Under the pieces are notes generated by a model. That model saw only the letters and a list, made by a program, of their open reading frames with translations, searched no databases and had not been told where the DNA came from. A stretch of 64,000 nucleotides of DNA, taken from the sequence record NC_054908.1. One strand, written 5' to 3'. The position numbers and the translations under genes are program-made. How positions within the stretch are numbered: the first letter of the stretch is position 1; each line of letters begins with the position of its first letter. Origin of the DNA: Escherichia phage vB_EcoM_DalCa. Positions 2,832-25,998 of this stretch are shown here, piece by piece.

Positions 2832-3680
2832 TCAAAAATCCTTCGGACCAATTTCACCAATTTTAGAAATAACGTTATTTACTCGGTTCAGTGTAACGTA
2901 GCAAGCTAAAATTCCCACCAATTTGTTATCAGCTTCTGATAGTTCAACTTTAGCTTTAATAGGCTTATCAGACTTTTTCTTTTCACTAAATTTGGAATTC
3001 TTGCATTTGATGGCTACACGATTTCCATTATGAAGCCAAGAAGGACAACAAGGTTTCAATACATATCCTTCAGCGGTAAATACTTCGCCTTTGGCTTCAG
3101 CTTTCCAAACACATTTGTTAGCGTCAACTAATCCTGCATGGTCTACTGTAAAATTATAATCTTGGACGACAGAATCTAAATCATTTGGCAATTTAATAAG
3201 CTCTTCAAATTTACCGCGACCTAAAAGTGGAGCCATTTTAAATTTAAATGTATTACAAAATGATTCCATCATATAATCATCGACATAAGTCACATCACCA
3301 CTTTCTGTAGTGACAATAATGTCAAATACATAAAAATCTTTATCGCCATAATCGACATTCTTCTGAATGCCAGGTCCAGCGAATTCGCCAAAGACTTGAT
3401 AAGATACAACCGCTGAGGTTTCCATAATATCTTGTACTGCTTTAATAGAATCTTCGTAATTCTTTAGAATAATTTCATACCCAAAGAAATCTTCAGCAGG
3501 AAGAATTGGTCCAGTACGTTTAGCGCAAGTTACTTTATCACGCTCAATAATCAATGAGAAATTTGTGCCGTGAATCTTTTCACGAGCTACCCACTCCCCA
3601 CCAGTCAATCCCAAGCTATAAAGTTTTTCAATAAATTTAGAGTTGTAATGATTTTCAAGACTGCTATACTTTTTAAACAT
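2832..3680 (-). CDS. rnlB: RNA ligase 2 (Rnl2), terminated by in-frame TGA after 282 codons; frame continues intact for 50 more codons to 2682
   Basis: N-terminus with KIHGTN nucleotidyltransferase motif I; recognised as T4 Rnl2 (334 aa); 282 + stop + 50 = 333 codons span the full-length position. Confidence 0.85.
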
Positions 3681-3689
3681 AATTAATCC

Positions 3690-3968
3690 TCAAAATGTAA
3701 TTTCTAACCAATCACCATCACGCTGATCACTATTGACTTTAAAGCTGAATCCTTCTTTTCTCAGCCAATCACCAATTTCTTCAGTAATCAATTTATCACG
3801 AGCAATACAATAATAACTAAAATGTGTTTTACCTTGTTCAGCTGCTTTATTAGCAAGTTCCGAAAAATCTTTAATAAAACATTCTAGTTTAAACTGTTTA
3901 CTTTTAAGTGCTTTTTCTCGCAATTGATTAGCAAAAGATTCATTTTCATAAAGATCATACTGTTCCAT
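3690..3968 (-). CDS. hypothetical protein (T4 24.2 position)
   Basis: 92-aa ORF, translationally coupled to flanking ORFs. Confidence 0.7.
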   Translation of the reverse strand: MEQYDLYENESFANQLREKALKSKQFKLECFIKDFSELANKAAEQGKTHFSYYCIARDKLITEEIGDWLRKEGFSFKVNSDQRDGDWLEITF

Positions 3969-22650: not shown

Positions 22651-22916
22651 TGTTCATCCTTTAGAGTTTGGTTTACAGCTCTATTATAAATCAATTCATC
22701 ATTAAGCTCAGTCAAAGACCTGTGGTACGTGGTTCTAACTTTATTTCCTTGCATCCAGTGCTTGACGTAAATGAAACCTTGCTCTACACATTTTTTAAAA
22801 ATTCGTTCGTCTTTTTGAGCTCGGAATTCTGGATTGCATCTAAAAAATTGATTTACGTGACCGTAATCACGTGTAGTATTACCTTCATTTTCATAAATAG
22901 TGTGAACAACAAACAT
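22647..22916 (-). CDS. hypothetical protein (30.1 position)
   Basis: 89-aa ORF, overlapping stop/start with flanking genes. Confidence 0.7.
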   Translation of the reverse strand: MFVVHTIYENEGNTTRDYGHVNQFFRCNPEFRAQKDERIFKKCVEQGFIYVKHWMQGNKVRTTYHRSLTELNDELIYNRAVNQTLKDEQ

Positions 22917-23770
22917 TAGAATGCTCCTTGGAAAATATTATCACCACTACCACTAGTAAGTCTATTAAAATACCCTGCGTCGCCAGGCTTAATATAACTC
23001 CACGTATGGAATGGATGCATCTGATGTGAGTGTGTATAATATGGATGATATGGATTATAAGGATTAAATCCAGGAGTTCTCCAAGTAGTGTTCCAACGAA
23101 AAGAATCGTTTTTAATCATCTTCTCAATTACATCTTTTATAACTTTTTCACTATCAAAACTTTCTTTATTTTCCTTCGATGGAAAAAGCTTATTCTCTAC
23201 ATCATTCCATGTATAAACTCGCTGTGCAGTTTTTGGAATACTGTCACGTTCCCCTCGAGCCATCCAATAAACAGGAACATTTAATATTTCACTCGCGTGA
23301 TCGCAGTGGTGAGCGAGATCGTCAATATAACAAATTACGTTATATTTTTCTTTTGCCTTTTTGAACAACTCTTCTTTTGAAGAATCATGACCACACATCA
23401 GTACTTCTGAGAAGGCACCAGGAAAAAGAGCATTCAAATTAAATTGACGATTCAGCAGAGCGTCAATAGAATCACCCAATGCTGTAACAGCTACAAAATT
23501 ATAATCTTCTTTTAATTTGTTAATTACACACAGAGCATCTTTATATGGAGACAAGTAACGAATAAAATCTGAACGATTGTATTTTTCAATTAGCTTGACG
23601 CCAAGTTCTTCGTCACAATTAAAGAGTTTACCTGGAGAAATAAATTTCTCATCCTGGATCATTTTTAAAATATGTTCTAACGGAAGATTATATTTCTGAG
23701 CAAAATAAGGAAGACCTGATTGCCAGCTTAAACATACTCCATCAATATCAGTTAAAATAGTAGGCTTCAT
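22916..23770 (-). CDS. 30.2: HAD-superfamily phosphatase-like protein (30.2 position) with His/Tyr/Pro-rich C-terminal tail
   Basis: N-terminal ILTDIDGV matches HAD motif I (DxDG); later CYIDD resembles motif III. Confidence 0.7.
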   Translation of the reverse strand: MKPTILTDIDGVCLSWQSGLPYFAQKYNLPLEHILKMIQDEKFISPGKLFNCDEELGVKLIEKYNRSDFIRYLSPYKDALCVINKLKEDYNFVAVTALGDSIDALLNRQFNLNALFPGAFSEVLMCGHDSSKEELFKKAKEKYNVICYIDDLAHHCDHASEILNVPVYWMARGERDSIPKTAQRVYTWNDVENKLFPSKENKESFDSEKVIKDVIEKMIKNDSFRWNTTWRTPGFNPYNPYHPYYTHSHQMHPFHTWSYIKPGDAGYFNRLTSGSGDNIFQGAF

Positions 23771-24231
23771 AGAGAGTCTCTTAATAGGTTTAACACATCA
23801 ATAAATTCAGCTTCGGTTAGTATTGTATCATCTTTTGTTAGACCACTAGCCATGCTGTGCTTCAAAACTTTTCCTTTCGAGGCTTGTAATGCATCACGGA
23901 AGCCCTTGTTTTGGATCACTGCTTCAAAATATGCATTTGTGTATAATTCTTTCCACGCCGGGGAGTATCTTGAAAATGGAACTCCAAGCCAGAAGAGGGT
24001 CCCACGGTCCTGAGCTCTAGCATAAGACCTTCCAGCTTGTTGAGCGGCAAGCCCGGATAACCCAAATATACGACGTTGTTGTTCAACGTTTTTTACCTTG
24101 CATCCTTGGAGGAATCCTTCAAGACCTCCAAATTGAATACCATCCATAACGAAAGGCCATTGGGCGAAATTGCTTAATGCACATGATGGCCATCTAAAAT
24201 TGCTTCTTATCTCTAGCTCAGACATTTTCAA
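23767..24231 (-). CDS. 30.3: YbiA/NADAR (DUF1768)-like protein (30.3 position)
   Basis: segment LSNFAQWPFVMDGIQF resembles the FSNFAAWP..VDG core recalled from E. coli YbiA. Confidence 0.6.
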   Translation of the reverse strand: MKMSELEIRSNFRWPSCALSNFAQWPFVMDGIQFGGLEGFLQGCKVKNVEQQRRIFGLSGLAAQQAGRSYARAQDRGTLFWLGVPFSRYSPAWKELYTNAYFEAVIQNKGFRDALQASKGKVLKHSMASGLTKDDTILTEAEFIDVLNLLRDSL

Positions 24232-24424
24232 TACTTATAATTTCAACATCAGCCCAATGACCATAGCAAGGAAGACGAAATTCAACTGGCCAGTTAGGGT
24301 CCTTTTCTAATATAATAGACTTAACTTGTGGTTCTTCATGTTCATCGGTATACGGACCTTTATACGTTACTTTATATGTGACCTTAATGTACTGAATTCC
24401 AAAAATCTTATTAATTATATTCAT
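24218..24424 (-). CDS. hypothetical protein
   Basis: 68-aa ORF in a translationally coupled accessory block. Confidence 0.55.
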   Translation of the reverse strand: MNIINKIFGIQYIKVTYKVTYKGPYTDEHEEPQVKSIILEKDPNWPVEFRLPCYGHWADVEIISIENV

Positions 24425-24618
24425 ACTAATTCCTTTAATCCATAGATAGGAGATAATTCATCACCCATACGAAGGTCTTCATTTCCATCTACCCAGGAAA
24501 CAATATAAGCCTCTTTTATTTGAACGTCTCTCCATTTAAATGCAGGCAAAACCTTAGAAATTAATCCAGGTATACCGACTCCCTTTAATTCAACAGTTTG
24601 ACCCAAAAAGAATTTCAT
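24421..24618 (-). CDS. hypothetical protein
   Basis: 65-aa ORF, overlapping stop/start. Confidence 0.55.
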   Translation of the reverse strand: MKFFLGQTVELKGVGIPGLISKVLPAFKWRDVQIKEAYIVSWVDGNEDLRMGDELSPIYGLKELV

Positions 24619-24956
24619 TAGAACCTCATCTGAAATCCGTGCGATTTAACATTACCACCACCAATGTCAGAAATATTAATTTCACTCGCAATTGAAGGGT
24701 CAATGTCAATTTCACGATTGAGTTTAATGATTGCTAGAGTATCACGTCCATTTACAGTACGGAACTCTAAAGGACATACTACATTAACGTAGTTTTTAAT
24801 CGATTCACTGGTAGGCTGCAAATGAGCAGGAAGGTCTTTAGGCGCCTTAGAGAAAACCACTTCACAGAAATTTTTGCGGGTATCAAAATAAGTAGTCATA
24901 AACATAGTATTTTCCTCAGTAAGGGGCCGAAGCCCCTGTTTTATTTTAAATATCAA
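24618..24956 (-). CDS. hypothetical protein
   Basis: 112-aa ORF; start may be internal. Confidence 0.55.
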   Translation of the reverse strand: MIFKIKQGLRPLTEENTMFMTTYFDTRKNFCEVVFSKAPKDLPAHLQPTSESIKNYVNVVCPLEFRTVNGRDTLAIIKLNREIDIDPSIASEINISDIGGGNVKSHGFQMRF

Positions 24957-25323
24957 ATTCGTTAAGAACTACATCAAAGATTGCTTCAAGATGCTCAGGT
25001 TTAGCTCTGTTACTCAGAATATGACGAATCCAAGTTTTAACCAGAAGCTTACGATTGACGCCATTCCAACAAGGATGAGTCCCTAAATCACGTTGACGAA
25101 AATCATCATCCAGAGCGATTTTAAAAGAAGAACCTTCTTTCGTGATTGAAACCGTAATGCCATTTTCAAATCGCATATAAACGTAGTTAGGAGTCATATA
25201 CTGTTCAATTTCGCATACTGATCCATTTTGATGTTTCCAAAGGCAAATAGTATCAATAGAACCTGCAATACCGTTAGAAACATATTTACGTTCAAAGTTA
25301 ATGTAGTTCATTTTATTCTCCAA
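24946..25323 (-). CDS. hypothetical protein
   Basis: 125-aa ORF. Confidence 0.6.
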   Translation of the reverse strand: MENKMNYINFERKYVSNGIAGSIDTICLWKHQNGSVCEIEQYMTPNYVYMRFENGITVSITKEGSSFKIALDDDFRQRDLGTHPCWNGVNRKLLVKTWIRHILSNRAKPEHLEAIFDVVLNEFDI

Positions 25324-25378
25324 GATGTTTAATTGCGGTACAGGTATATAATATCATATCCTGTACCAAAGTAAACAA

Positions 25379-25711
25379 TTATTTTACTAATTTCCAATGC
25401 TTCATGTCAAGTTTGCCAACTTTTTTCATCTTCTCAATTAAGCGTTCGGCACGCTGGCGAGCTGTAACATAATACCATTCACCCAATTCATTTTGTTCAA
25501 TTTTTCCAACGATTACTGTATTCAATTCATAAATCCAACCAGTAAAGAAATTATGAACTTGAATTGTAAAGGTGAAATCTGTTCCCATACCTTCTGTTGT
25601 TTCTACTTCAACAATATCACCTTCAACTGCCATTAAGAACCACATAGTTTCATCATATTTACCATTGAAGCATTTAGTTTTAACTGCAGCGTTCAGATTA
25701 ATCGTTTTCAT
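25379..25711 (-). CDS. hypothetical protein
   Basis: 110-aa ORF preceded by an early-type promoter at about 25735..25775. Confidence 0.6.
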   Translation of the reverse strand: MKTINLNAAVKTKCFNGKYDETMWFLMAVEGDIVEVETTEGMGTDFTFTIQVHNFFTGWIYELNTVIVGKIEQNELGEWYYVTARQRAERLIEKMKKVGKLDMKHWKLVK

Positions 25712-25821
25712 TTTATTCTCCTTTGTTTGTGTAAGATAATACTATCACAAAGGAACCATACTGTAAACAACTTTGTGCAATCTTTGGAAAATAAAAAAGG
25801 ACTCCCGAAGGAGTCCTCAAC

Positions 25822-25998
25822 TTATGCTTTCTGCTTACCAAAACGAGAAGCATCATCTCGAAGAACCGCACGTGCTCGGCGCATGATCTTCTCAACAGTT
25901 TGATTGATACGAGAGTTCGACCCACGCTTGTAACCAGCGCGTTTAGAATCACCAACTTTCTTTTCAACTGCTTTCTTTGCTTTAGCTTGTTTTGCCAT
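25822..25998 (-). CDS. small basic Lys/Arg-rich protein (30.9 position)
   Basis: 58 aa from MAKQAKAKK...; start choice uncertain (alternative ATG at 26040). Confidence 0.55.
   Translation of the reverse strand: MAKQAKAKKAVEKKVGDSKRAGYKRGSNSRINQTVEKIMRRARAVLRDDASRFGKQKA

Follow-up and report, generated by a model that had tools for sequence, protein, structure and literature searches.

Early genes 30.8 to 30.4 of Escherichia phage vB_EcoM_DalCa, a T4-type accessory cluster that probably encodes host-protein binders

The stretch of 64,000 nucleotides from Escherichia phage vB_EcoM_DalCa (NC_054908.1) that we analysed, hereafter the window, carries between positions 24218 and 25711 five short genes, all on the minus strand, in which the original prediction had seen a block of coupled ORFs of unknown function. 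By sequence comparison these are the T4-like early genes 30.4, 30.5, 30.6, 30.7 and 30.8, which have long been catalogued, and as an identification this re-finds known T4 ORFs and adds nothing new. The identity follows from synteny, equal gene lengths, an amino-acid identity of 94-97% to the T4 proteins (NC_000866; NP_049818 to NP_049822; UniProt Q02405-Q02408 and Q00305) and matches to Pfam and PHROG families. At the DNA level the block is 94.7% identical to T4 over 1496 nt, and the two phages share the gene order, strand and lengths (207, 198, 288, 366 and 333 nt for 30.4 to 30.8), the flanking genes 30.3 and 30.9, the two promoters and the position of a hairpin. The differences are a few substitutions, four of them in 30.5, where they cluster in or beside a hypervariable patch, and the loop of the hairpin, which is UUCA in T4 and UUCG in the window.

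As had been noticed, the block is located between 30.9 and a NADAR-like gene, and this gene is 30.3 (adfN). Read in the sense of transcription, rIII and gene 31 precede the block and the ligase gene 30 comes after it. The five ORFs do fill the interval, but two of them had been over-extended: the 112-aa and 125-aa versions begin at TTG codons, one within the coding region of 30.7 and the other within the 30.7 Shine-Dalgarno. When the conserved ATG codons are taken as starts, 30.6 and 30.7 have the positions listed in Table 1 and are as long as their T4 counterparts.

Table 1. Features of the 30.8-30.4 cluster and its borders (positions in the window).
Feature	Position	Strand	Remarks
Intrinsic terminator after 30.9	25797..25818	-	GAGGACUCC-UUCG-GGAGUCCUU then U-run; terminator scan; annotated terminator in phage NBG2
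T4-type early promoter of 30.8 (putative)	25739..25768	-	GTTTACA, 15 nt, TGa-TAGTAT
Gene 30.8	25379..25711	-	110 aa; PF06019; Shine-Dalgarno AAGGAG with RegB-type GGAG
T4-type early promoter of 30.7 (putative)	25348..25376	-	GTTTACT, 14 nt, TGa-TATTAT
Gene 30.7	24946..25311	-	121 aa; PF06919; Shine-Dalgarno TTGGAGAA with GGAG
Tetraloop hairpin AGGGGC-UUCG-GCCCCU	24922..24937	-	stable, without U-run
30.6 Shine-Dalgarno GAGGA	24913-24917	-	4 nt downstream of the hairpin
Gene 30.6	24618..24905	-	95 aa; ATG start; heads the overlapping series 30.6, 30.5, 30.4, 30.3
Gene 30.5	24421..24618	-	65 aa; start overlaps the 30.6 stop (TAATG)
Gene 30.4	24218..24424	-	68 aa; ATGA overlap with 30.5; 8-nt overlap with the 30.3 start
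Gene 30.3 = adfN	23767..24225	-	NADAR DNA ADP-ribosylglycohydrolase; PF08010 match; 98.7% identity to T4 30.3

The ORFs are far beyond what chance would produce. Depending on the gene, 709-1041 of 50,697 phage records carry it. All five are under purifying selection (dN/dS 0.05-0.23), and from this selection, together with the early mRNA and protein of the T4 counterparts, it follows that they are real genes. The T4 orthologues of all five belong to the class 'early-RNA_early-Protein', and the proteins have been detected during T4 infection (PMC9697503, supplements). It might be argued that such ORFs bring the phage no benefit, being evolutionary filler or selfish remnants, given that four of the five have no fitness effect and that homologues are confined to phages. 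This is hardly credible and already largely refuted by the purifying selection, the retention in 700-1040 genomes, the dedicated and conserved promoters and ribosome-binding sites, the proteins detected in infection and, for 30.8, a predicted fold of very high confidence obtained with a diverse alignment.

No motif had been recognised in any of the five ORFs, and our searches bear this out. Pfam matches are limited to the self-named families PF06919 (30.7) and PF06019 (30.8), with scores of 173 and 196 bits versus cut-offs of 27 and 25, and the PHROG matches (phrog_2042, 1690, 2153, 1582 and 1507; E-values 1e-33 to 1e-64) are all to families of unknown function; scans with diverse family members likewise gave nothing beyond self-named families and families without an assigned function. 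NCBIfam gave no match for the five proteins, PADLOC, whose library consists of defence rather than anti-defence proteins, gave none at E<=1, and PDB sequence and profile searches with all five gave nothing below E=0.005. PDB matches to Leo1, a flavin-lyase, aminopeptidase N and F-box/WD were weak, short and not significant. An enzymatic or structural homologue was found for none of the five in Pfam, NCBIfam or the PDB, so that the outcome which would have refuted the original prediction did not occur. The products are soluble single-domain proteins of 7-14 kDa, slightly acidic to near-neutral, and as far as their sequences tell they are without catalytic motif or relatives outside phages. GenBank labels on these ORFs such as 'terminase large subunit', 'head vertex protein', 'baseplate hub' and 'glycogen branching enzyme' are unsupported and represent annotation noise.

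In the window we counted 12 copies of the early-promoter motif GTTTAC-N13-16-TGnTAnnnT, where 0.16 would be expected, and every copy is on the minus strand. Two of the 12 lie directly upstream of 30.8 and 30.7, and the early-promoter position is shared by most T4-like loci and conserved across genera. The early expression that had been proposed for the block is supported by these motifs and by the T4 omics data, the promoter motifs being those of the window and the expression itself that of T4. Transcription of the cluster 30.8-30.7-30.6-30.5-30.4 would run leftward, from the minus strand, within the first minutes after infection. A terminator closes the rIII/30.9 unit that lies before it; 30.8 follows with a sigma-70 early promoter and 30.7 with a second one, and transcripts are predicted to start near 25732 and 25341, roughly 7 nt past the -10 elements. 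The ribosome-binding sites of 30.8 and 30.7 both contain GGAG, the cleavage site of the phage RegB nuclease that shuts early translation off, and the T4 30.7 mRNA is a documented RegB target.

The packing of the ORFs by overlapping stop and start codons, which had been claimed for the whole block, is real from 30.6 through to 30.3 (TAATG, ATGA and an 8-nt overlap, in this order), but elsewhere the genes are separated by gaps, one of 67 nt between 30.8 and 30.7 that contains a promoter and one of 40 nt between 30.7 and 30.6 that contains the hairpin. A single translationally coupled block of five ORFs is not supported. Because of the stop-to-start overlaps, 30.6, 30.5, 30.4 and adfN are probably translated as a coupled series.

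Between 30.7 and this series, a conserved and covarying UUCG hairpin is placed directly before a strong Shine-Dalgarno. The hairpin is present in every T4-like locus examined, with a GAAA (GNRA) loop instead of UUCG in some relatives, and UGAGGAAA always comes next, whichever gene follows. Compensatory changes on both sides were observed for five of the six pairs of the stem, 92.9% of cells are paired, and the covariation score was reached by none of 500 shuffles and by no slid register. Hairpins with C(UUCG)G tetraloops were reportedly described in T4 intercistronic regions by Tuerk et al. in 1988, and like these the hairpin of the window has a G+C-rich stem of 5-6 pairs and a UUCG cap and lies between two genes of one transcript. 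Compared with the T4 hairpins it is not unusual in itself; what is noteworthy is its constant association with the downstream UGAGGAAA Shine-Dalgarno. It may protect the 3' end of the mRNA, stop processing or present the ribosome-binding site. Matches to Rfam were all sub-threshold, and were located on the terminator and on an inverted repeat in the promoter region.

The region had also been described as variable. Within Tequatrovirus it is not freely so: hundreds of genomes have the block in collinear order, and it is the 30.7-30.5 slot that forms the true hot spot. Mosigvirus and the Klebsiella/Enterobacter T4-like loci retain the replication genes but either lack 30.6 or have unrelated genes in its place. 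Gene 30.8, which is found in more than 1000 phage genomes, shows 37-40% identity between genera with a ligase about 62% identical. Loci of Dhakavirus type, a type assigned by similarity to IME08, are otherwise very much alike but carry either of two 30.8 alleles, one 78% and the other 39-40% identical to that of the window, and homologues of 30.8 are found elsewhere in the genome of an Aeromonas phage and also in the non-T4-like Stephanstirmvirinae. The 30.8 model has no fold neighbour in the PDB.

Only 30.5 has so far been tied to the host. T4 30.5 binds the host polyphosphate kinase (Ppk), as shown by co-immunoprecipitation and mass spectrometry; it also activates the NLR-like immune sensor bNACHT11 and is toxic when co-expressed with it, and a T4 30.5 deletion mutant shows partial escape (preprint, bioRxiv 10.1101/2024.12.17.629029). 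The same preprint covers the binding of Ppk, not Ppk activity or phage benefit. The protein therefore has a host-interaction role, but the one that is documented is that of an immune trigger and not of an inhibitor. By its sequence the window protein is the orthologue, with 93.8% identity, the same length and the same conserved core, but this allele differs from T4 by P26A, S30R, G31D and I32V, in or beside the variable surface patch, the hypervariable part of which comprises residues 29-34. Perhaps this patch records an arms race in which NLR-like sensors, bNACHT11 being one, are the opponent, and perhaps 30.8 (PF06019), judged by its predicted model, is a structurally orphan, self-contained early-gene cassette with its own promoter and ribosome-binding site; we offer the two together as a tentative reading. 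If true, the pattern seen in 30.8, namely an orphan fold, wide spread and two swapped, diverged alleles, would fit a new class of inhibitors of host factors or immune systems.

The ends of 30.4 are conserved while its centre is hypervariable (dN/dS 0.23), and it has no relative in Pfam or the PDB. For 30.6 (dN/dS 0.05), a full HMMER scan that covered 1.84 billion proteins found relatives in phages only; matches to cadherin, TPR and pentapeptide repeats were spurious, involving mutually unrelated long repeat proteins and several short stretches. Gene 30.7 is unusually conserved: between genera with a ligase of about 62% identity its product keeps 89-93% amino-acid identity, its dN/dS is 0.05-0.07 and its dS is low (0.70 versus 2.1 for the ligase). 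Of five AF2 runs on the 30.7 protein, a single one gave a confident model. A DUF4314 label given to 30.7 in GenBank (MZ502380) was discarded, as 11 family members match PF06919 only, with no DUF4314 at E<=10. In the T4 CRISPRi-ART screen 30.6 was scored 'Semi-Fit', the sole fitness signal among the five, and 30.7 'Not Fit'; four of the five genes are without fitness effect and dispensable on the laboratory host. On a host without the relevant defence, the 'Semi-Fit' score of 30.6 is a hint that the gene contributes to the basic infection cycle, or else that downstream genes suffered a polar effect.

Some of these proteins, chiefly 30.7 and 30.6, could serve the phage's own programme instead of targeting host proteins, whether as small accessory subunits or as regulators, in DNA or nucleotide metabolism or in early gene expression. 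Their DNA-metabolism neighbours (the ligase, the HAD-type nucleotidase-like protein 30.2 and dCMP deaminase) would be consistent with this, as would the conservation of 30.7 relative to the ligase and the score of 30.6. We nevertheless regard it as quite improbable, given that the knock-down screen scored 30.7 as 'Not Fit', that 30.6 is absent or replaced in T4-like loci despite the kept replication genes, and that a dS as low as that of 30.7 speaks for recent transfer and not for exceptional constraint. The conservation of 30.7 is better accounted for by recent gene exchange, or by a conserved partner within the phage, than by an arms race.

Host takeover or anti-defence had been suggested as the function of the whole block. 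The host interaction holds for 30.5, through Ppk and bNACHT11. For 30.4, 30.6, 30.7 and 30.8, a literature search by gene names, locus tags, UniProt and Pfam accessions returned no report of a function, of host takeover or of anti-defence. T4 gp30.3, encoded directly downstream in the same overlapping series of early genes, is a NADAR orphan antitoxin now called AdfN, an enzyme experimentally shown to counter DarTG1 (bioRxiv 10.1101/2024.07.11.602962), and because AdfN sits in it this stretch of the genome carries counter-defence genes. However, AdfN is an enzyme with cellular homologues in the NADAR family, whereas the five proteins are without catalytic motif or cellular relatives.

We believe that the best explanation, and a probable one, is a leftward transcribed T4 early accessory cluster encoding host-protein binders. 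The four proteins other than 30.5 would be, like 30.5, stoichiometric binders that modulate individual host proteins, and not enzymes, and the patchy distribution, the swapping of 30.8 alleles and the hypervariable loops of 30.4 and 30.5 would reflect adaptation to host targets and sensors. It should be said that 30.5 alone among the five proteins has a measured function, reported in a preprint, and that the conservation of 30.7, the 'Semi-Fit' score of 30.6 and the uneven AF2 runs for 30.7 also count against this explanation.

A narrower proposal makes the four uncharacterised proteins dedicated inhibitors of defence, as AdfN next to them is. Each would neutralise a specific bacterial immune system, and they would seem dispensable only for the reason that laboratory hosts lack the matching systems. 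AdfN in the same series, early expression combined with the absence of a fitness effect on a laboratory strain, the accessory and mosaic distribution and the fast evolution of 30.8 and 30.4 are in its favour, and defence inhibition is what the authors of the CRISPRi-ART work propose for such genes. Still, we consider it unlikely, since the literature names no defence system countered by 30.4, 30.6, 30.7 or 30.8 and the characterised member, 30.5, triggers immunity and binds a metabolic kinase; the PADLOC models, representing defence proteins, also include nothing related.

Uncharacterised early genes are a large group that remains after sixty years of work on T4, and this group holds both counter-defence enzymes (AdfN) and binders of metabolic enzymes that are sensed by immune receptors (30.5). 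The four remaining genes of the cluster are reasonable and cheap candidates for screens, among which 30.8 stands out by its orphan fold and wide spread and 30.6 by the sole fitness signal.

A last observation concerns a possible HspQ-like domain in 30.5. The YccV/HspQ Pfam model (PF08755) found no match at E<=10 among 11 diverse 30.5 homologues, and a deeper HspQ alignment built from genomes contained only sequences at least 85% identical and did not sharpen the comparison. With hhalign, 30.5 gave a weak profile match to HspQ, with a score of 24.5-28 and a low to middling match probability (35-61%), although this score was above those of all controls (at most 19.5 for 133 unrelated ORFs of the window and 22.5 for 200 shuffles). 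The N-terminal segment KFxxGQxVxLkGxGIPGvI of 30.5 aligns within residues 5-61 of the HspQ/YccV-like SH3-type domain (E. coli hspQ, b0966), and in one run only the segment (Q)PaYxVxWvDG was aligned as well, but 30.5 is 40 residues shorter than HspQ. One GenBank record, PQ571308, already carries the YccV label on 30.5.

The 1.7 kb around the five-ORF block shares 99.8% identity with Escherichia phage vB_EcoM_NBG2 and was matched by 710 phage records, Tequatrovirus nearly throughout. On the minus strand the gene order is gene 31, rIII, 30.9, the five ORFs, 30.3, 30.2, 30.1 and the DNA ligase gene 30. The T4 reference record has the identical series, and the five ORFs of the window are genes 30.8, 30.7, 30.6, 30.5 and 30.4, the block being 94.7% identical to that of T4 at the DNA level. 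Because these genes have been catalogued since T4 genome sequencing, the finding of the five ORFs was already known. In two GenBank records of compared loci (PQ571308, L004; MZ502380, L003) automated labels on these small ORFs are unrelated to them (terminase large subunit, head vertex protein, baseplate hub, glycogen branching enzyme), which is a caution for label mining.

The original prediction had described five coupled ORFs with overlapping stop and start codons. All five are present where it placed them, on the minus strand, but two had been over-extended: their long forms (112 and 125 aa) rely on TTG start codons, located within the 30.7 coding sequence in one case and within the 30.7 Shine-Dalgarno in the other. 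Overlaps were found at 30.6/30.5 (TAATG, 1 nt), 30.5/30.4 (ATGA, 4 nt) and 30.4/30.3 (8 nt), whereas gaps of 67 nt and 40 nt separate 30.8/30.7 and 30.7/30.6. The layout is therefore one of two separate genes, 30.8 and 30.7, followed by an overlapping series continuing into 30.3, and the observation was real, yet imprecise. T4 30.3' (75 aa, an out-of-frame ORF internal to 30.3) has a counterpart shortened to 56 aa, with a TTG start and an early stop, which argues against a conserved gene.

The five ORFs are real genes under purifying selection. Nei-Gojobori dN/dS between the window and other Tequatrovirus loci was 0.19 for 30.8, 0.05 for 30.7, 0.05 for 30.6, 0.11 for 30.5 and 0.23 for 30.4 (ligase, 0.03), and by tblastn they were present in 1041, 993, 753, 875 and 709, respectively, of 50,697 phage records. 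Beside these values, a reading of the block as functionless filler is nearly excluded.

Features of the 30.4-30.8 region and of compared phage and metagenomic loci (L handles)
Feature	Position	Strand	T4 gene length (nt)	Protein identity to T4 (%)	Amino-acid identity to the window, Mosigvirus/Dhakavirus-type comparison loci (%)	Remarks
30.2	22916-23770	minus				284 aa
30.3	23767-24225	minus			84-96	
30.3' counterpart	23916-24086	minus				
30.4	24218-24424	minus	207	94	39-53	
30.5	24421-24618	minus	198	94	64-73	
30.6	24618-24905	minus	288	96		conserved ATG start, 95 aa
Hairpin	24937-24922	minus				AGGGGC-UUCG-GCCCCU, between 30.7 and 30.6, without U-run
30.7	24946-25311	minus	366	97	89-93	conserved ATG start, 121 aa
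Predicted early promoter of 30.7	25376-25348	minus				GTTTACT-N14-TGaTATTAT
30.8	25379-25711	minus	333	96	37-40	
Predicted early promoter of 30.8	25768-25739	minus				GTTTACA-N15-TGaTAGTAT
Predicted intrinsic terminator	25818-25797	minus				UUCG loop, 3' of 30.9
30.9	25822-25998 (or to 26040)	minus				
Promoter motif matches	16805, 25348, 25739, 29276, 32579, 40717, 41427, 55311, 57930, 58275, 61414, 61919	minus				
Slot cargo, L007	5133-5747					
Slot cargo, L006	5394-5882					
Slot cargo, L023	4393-5286					
Slot cargo, L026	4391-5004					
Slot cargo, L014	4704-5000					
30.8 homologue, L014	~3595-3924					

Early expression, as had been proposed, is borne out by the T4 orthologues 30.4-30.8, all of which fall into the class 'early-RNA_early-Protein' in transcriptome and proteome time courses (PMC9697503 supplements), and early promoters are predicted before 30.8 and 30.7. 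The motif GTTTAC-N13-16-TGnTAnnnT has 12 exact matches in the 64-kb window, all on the minus strand, with 0.16 expected by chance, and these probably mark early promoters across the whole stretch. This motif is the signature of T4 early promoters. Most of the T4-like loci examined have the 30.8 and 30.7 promoters in corresponding places, and no GTTTAC-type motif was found in these loci upstream of 30.6 or 30.5. The enriched, positionally conserved motifs thus give a predicted transcription-unit layout with two early promoters and a terminator. Both ribosome-binding sites contain GGAG (AAGGAG in 30.8, TTGGAG in 30.7), and T4 30.7 mRNA is known to be cut at GGAG by the RegB nuclease (PMC9409239).

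In all sampled T4-like loci (among L001-L030) a hairpin lies directly 3' of the 30.7 homologue; in the window the Shine-Dalgarno GAGGA begins 4 nt 3' of it. The hairpin is of the C(UUCG)G class, familiar from intercistronic regions of T4. In the T4-like loci examined UGAGGAAA always follows, even with an unrelated downstream gene. The stem covaries, with compensatory variants GGAGGC/GCCUCC, GGGAGC/GCUCCC and GGGCC/GGCCC and both sides altered in five of six pairs, which was matched by none of 500 shuffles and by no slid register; the loop is UUCG or, in some loci, GAAA, UUCA or UUUG. The hairpin may protect the 3' end of the 30.7 mRNA, present the downstream ribosome-binding site, or both.

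The comparison across genera drew on a single record each of Mosigvirus (mogra) and Dhakavirus (IME08) and on related metagenomic loci, grouped with these two by similarity. The ligase is ~62% identical between the window and the Mosigvirus/Dhakavirus-type loci. Synonymous divergence was 0.70 for 30.7 versus 2.1 for the ligase, which points to recent exchange between genera and not to constraint alone. Against L005, L007, L014-L022 and L029, it was below the ligase for both 30.7 and 30.3, suggesting recent intergeneric exchange of 30.7 and 30.3 (adfN); in the same comparison, divergence of 30.8, 30.4 and 30.1 was far above the ligase.

Among Dhakavirus-type loci that otherwise closely resemble one another, 30.8 comes in two alleles, with 78% and 39-40% identity to the window; they divide L014, L015, L016, L018 and L029 from L005 and L019-L022. 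The common 'long' allele has an acidic insertion of ~12 aa (YEDEE-GYSEDV) missing from the T4-type allele. In an Aeromonas phage the 30.8 homologue adjoins primase and denV genes, and in a Justusliebigvirus (Stephanstirmvirinae, not T4-like) it lies amid small unknown genes. Of most interest here is 30.8, for its predicted orphan fold, its cassette-like mobility and the depth of divergence between its alleles, together with the variable patch of 30.5: variation in 30.5 is concentrated at residues 29-34, and the four window-versus-T4 differences (26, 30, 31, 32) fall within or beside it. In 30.4 the ends are conserved and the centre is hypervariable. The real hot spot of the block is the slot between 30.7 and 30.5. 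In Tequatrovirus and Dhakavirus-type loci it is occupied by 30.6, in Mosigvirus by a gene of 204 aa, and in a Klebsiella phage and metagenomic T4-like loci related to it by two genes, one of 148-164 aa and one for a DUF7428 protein (53-56 aa). L023 has a diverged 30.4-like ORF here, upstream of 30.5, and an additional ORF of 98 aa is among the other cargo.

No motif had been recognised in the five proteins (7.3-14.1 kDa, pI 5.2-6.7), and the searches agree: Pfam matched only the self-named families PF06919 (30.7) and PF06019 (30.8), the PHROG families are of unknown function in every case, NCBIfam and PADLOC scans gave no matches, sequence and profile searches of the PDB were empty, and library scans with diverse members of each family left the outcome unchanged. 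With 30.6 as query, HMMER searched the whole of a set of 1.84 billion proteins and gave nine matches, namely phage orthologues, fragments and four repeat proteins, the last being mutually unrelated and rejected as spurious. A 'DUF4314' label on 30.7 found no support in a scan of family members. Nor does Pfam support the 'YccV' label that a GenBank record carries on 30.5; its profile aligned with E. coli HspQ at an hhalign probability of 35-61%, scoring above all 133 unrelated ORFs and all 200 shuffles, which is suggestive, nothing more, of an SH3-like barrel.

Host takeover or anti-defence was a sensible prior for the block, and the literature on T4 confirms a role in host interaction for one member, 30.5. 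T4 30.5 was the top AlphaFold-Multimer screen match for the NLR-related defence protein bNACHT11, co-expression of the two was toxic, T4 lacking 30.5 and two other activators escaped bNACHT11 nearly completely, and host polyphosphate kinase (Ppk) co-purifies with tagged 30.5, as reciprocal immunoprecipitation confirms (bioRxiv 10.1101/2024.12.17.629029). A literature search on the function of 30.4, 30.6, 30.7 and 30.8 found nothing. We consider it rather probable that these four would, like 30.5, be small proteins that have no enzymatic activity and bind proteins of the host or of its immunity. The gene that follows 30.4 in the overlapping series encodes gp30.3, AdfN, which counters DarTG1 (bioRxiv 10.1101/2024.07.11.602962), and that the four may be dedicated anti-defence inhibitors is a live if unlikely alternative. 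In T4, dispensability has been shown by CRISPRi-ART, with 30.4, 30.5, 30.7 and 30.8 'Not Fit' and 30.6 'Semi-Fit' (score 0.72, p 0.067; PMC11879866 supplement). Phage-internal roles, chiefly for 30.7 and 30.6, are a further live alternative to host binding, to which we give a low probability.

Among the neighbours, gp30.9 is extremely basic (58 aa, pI 11.4, net charge +13.5; 72 aa from an alternative upstream ATG in the NBG2 annotation) and may be a nucleic-acid or ribosome binder. Only ~91% identical to T4 30.2, gp30.2 has weak HAD/PNKP-phosphatase matches, is called a 5'-nucleotidase in other records, and ends in a low-complexity, Tyr/His/Pro-rich C-terminal tail (NPYNPYHPYYTHSHQMHPFH).
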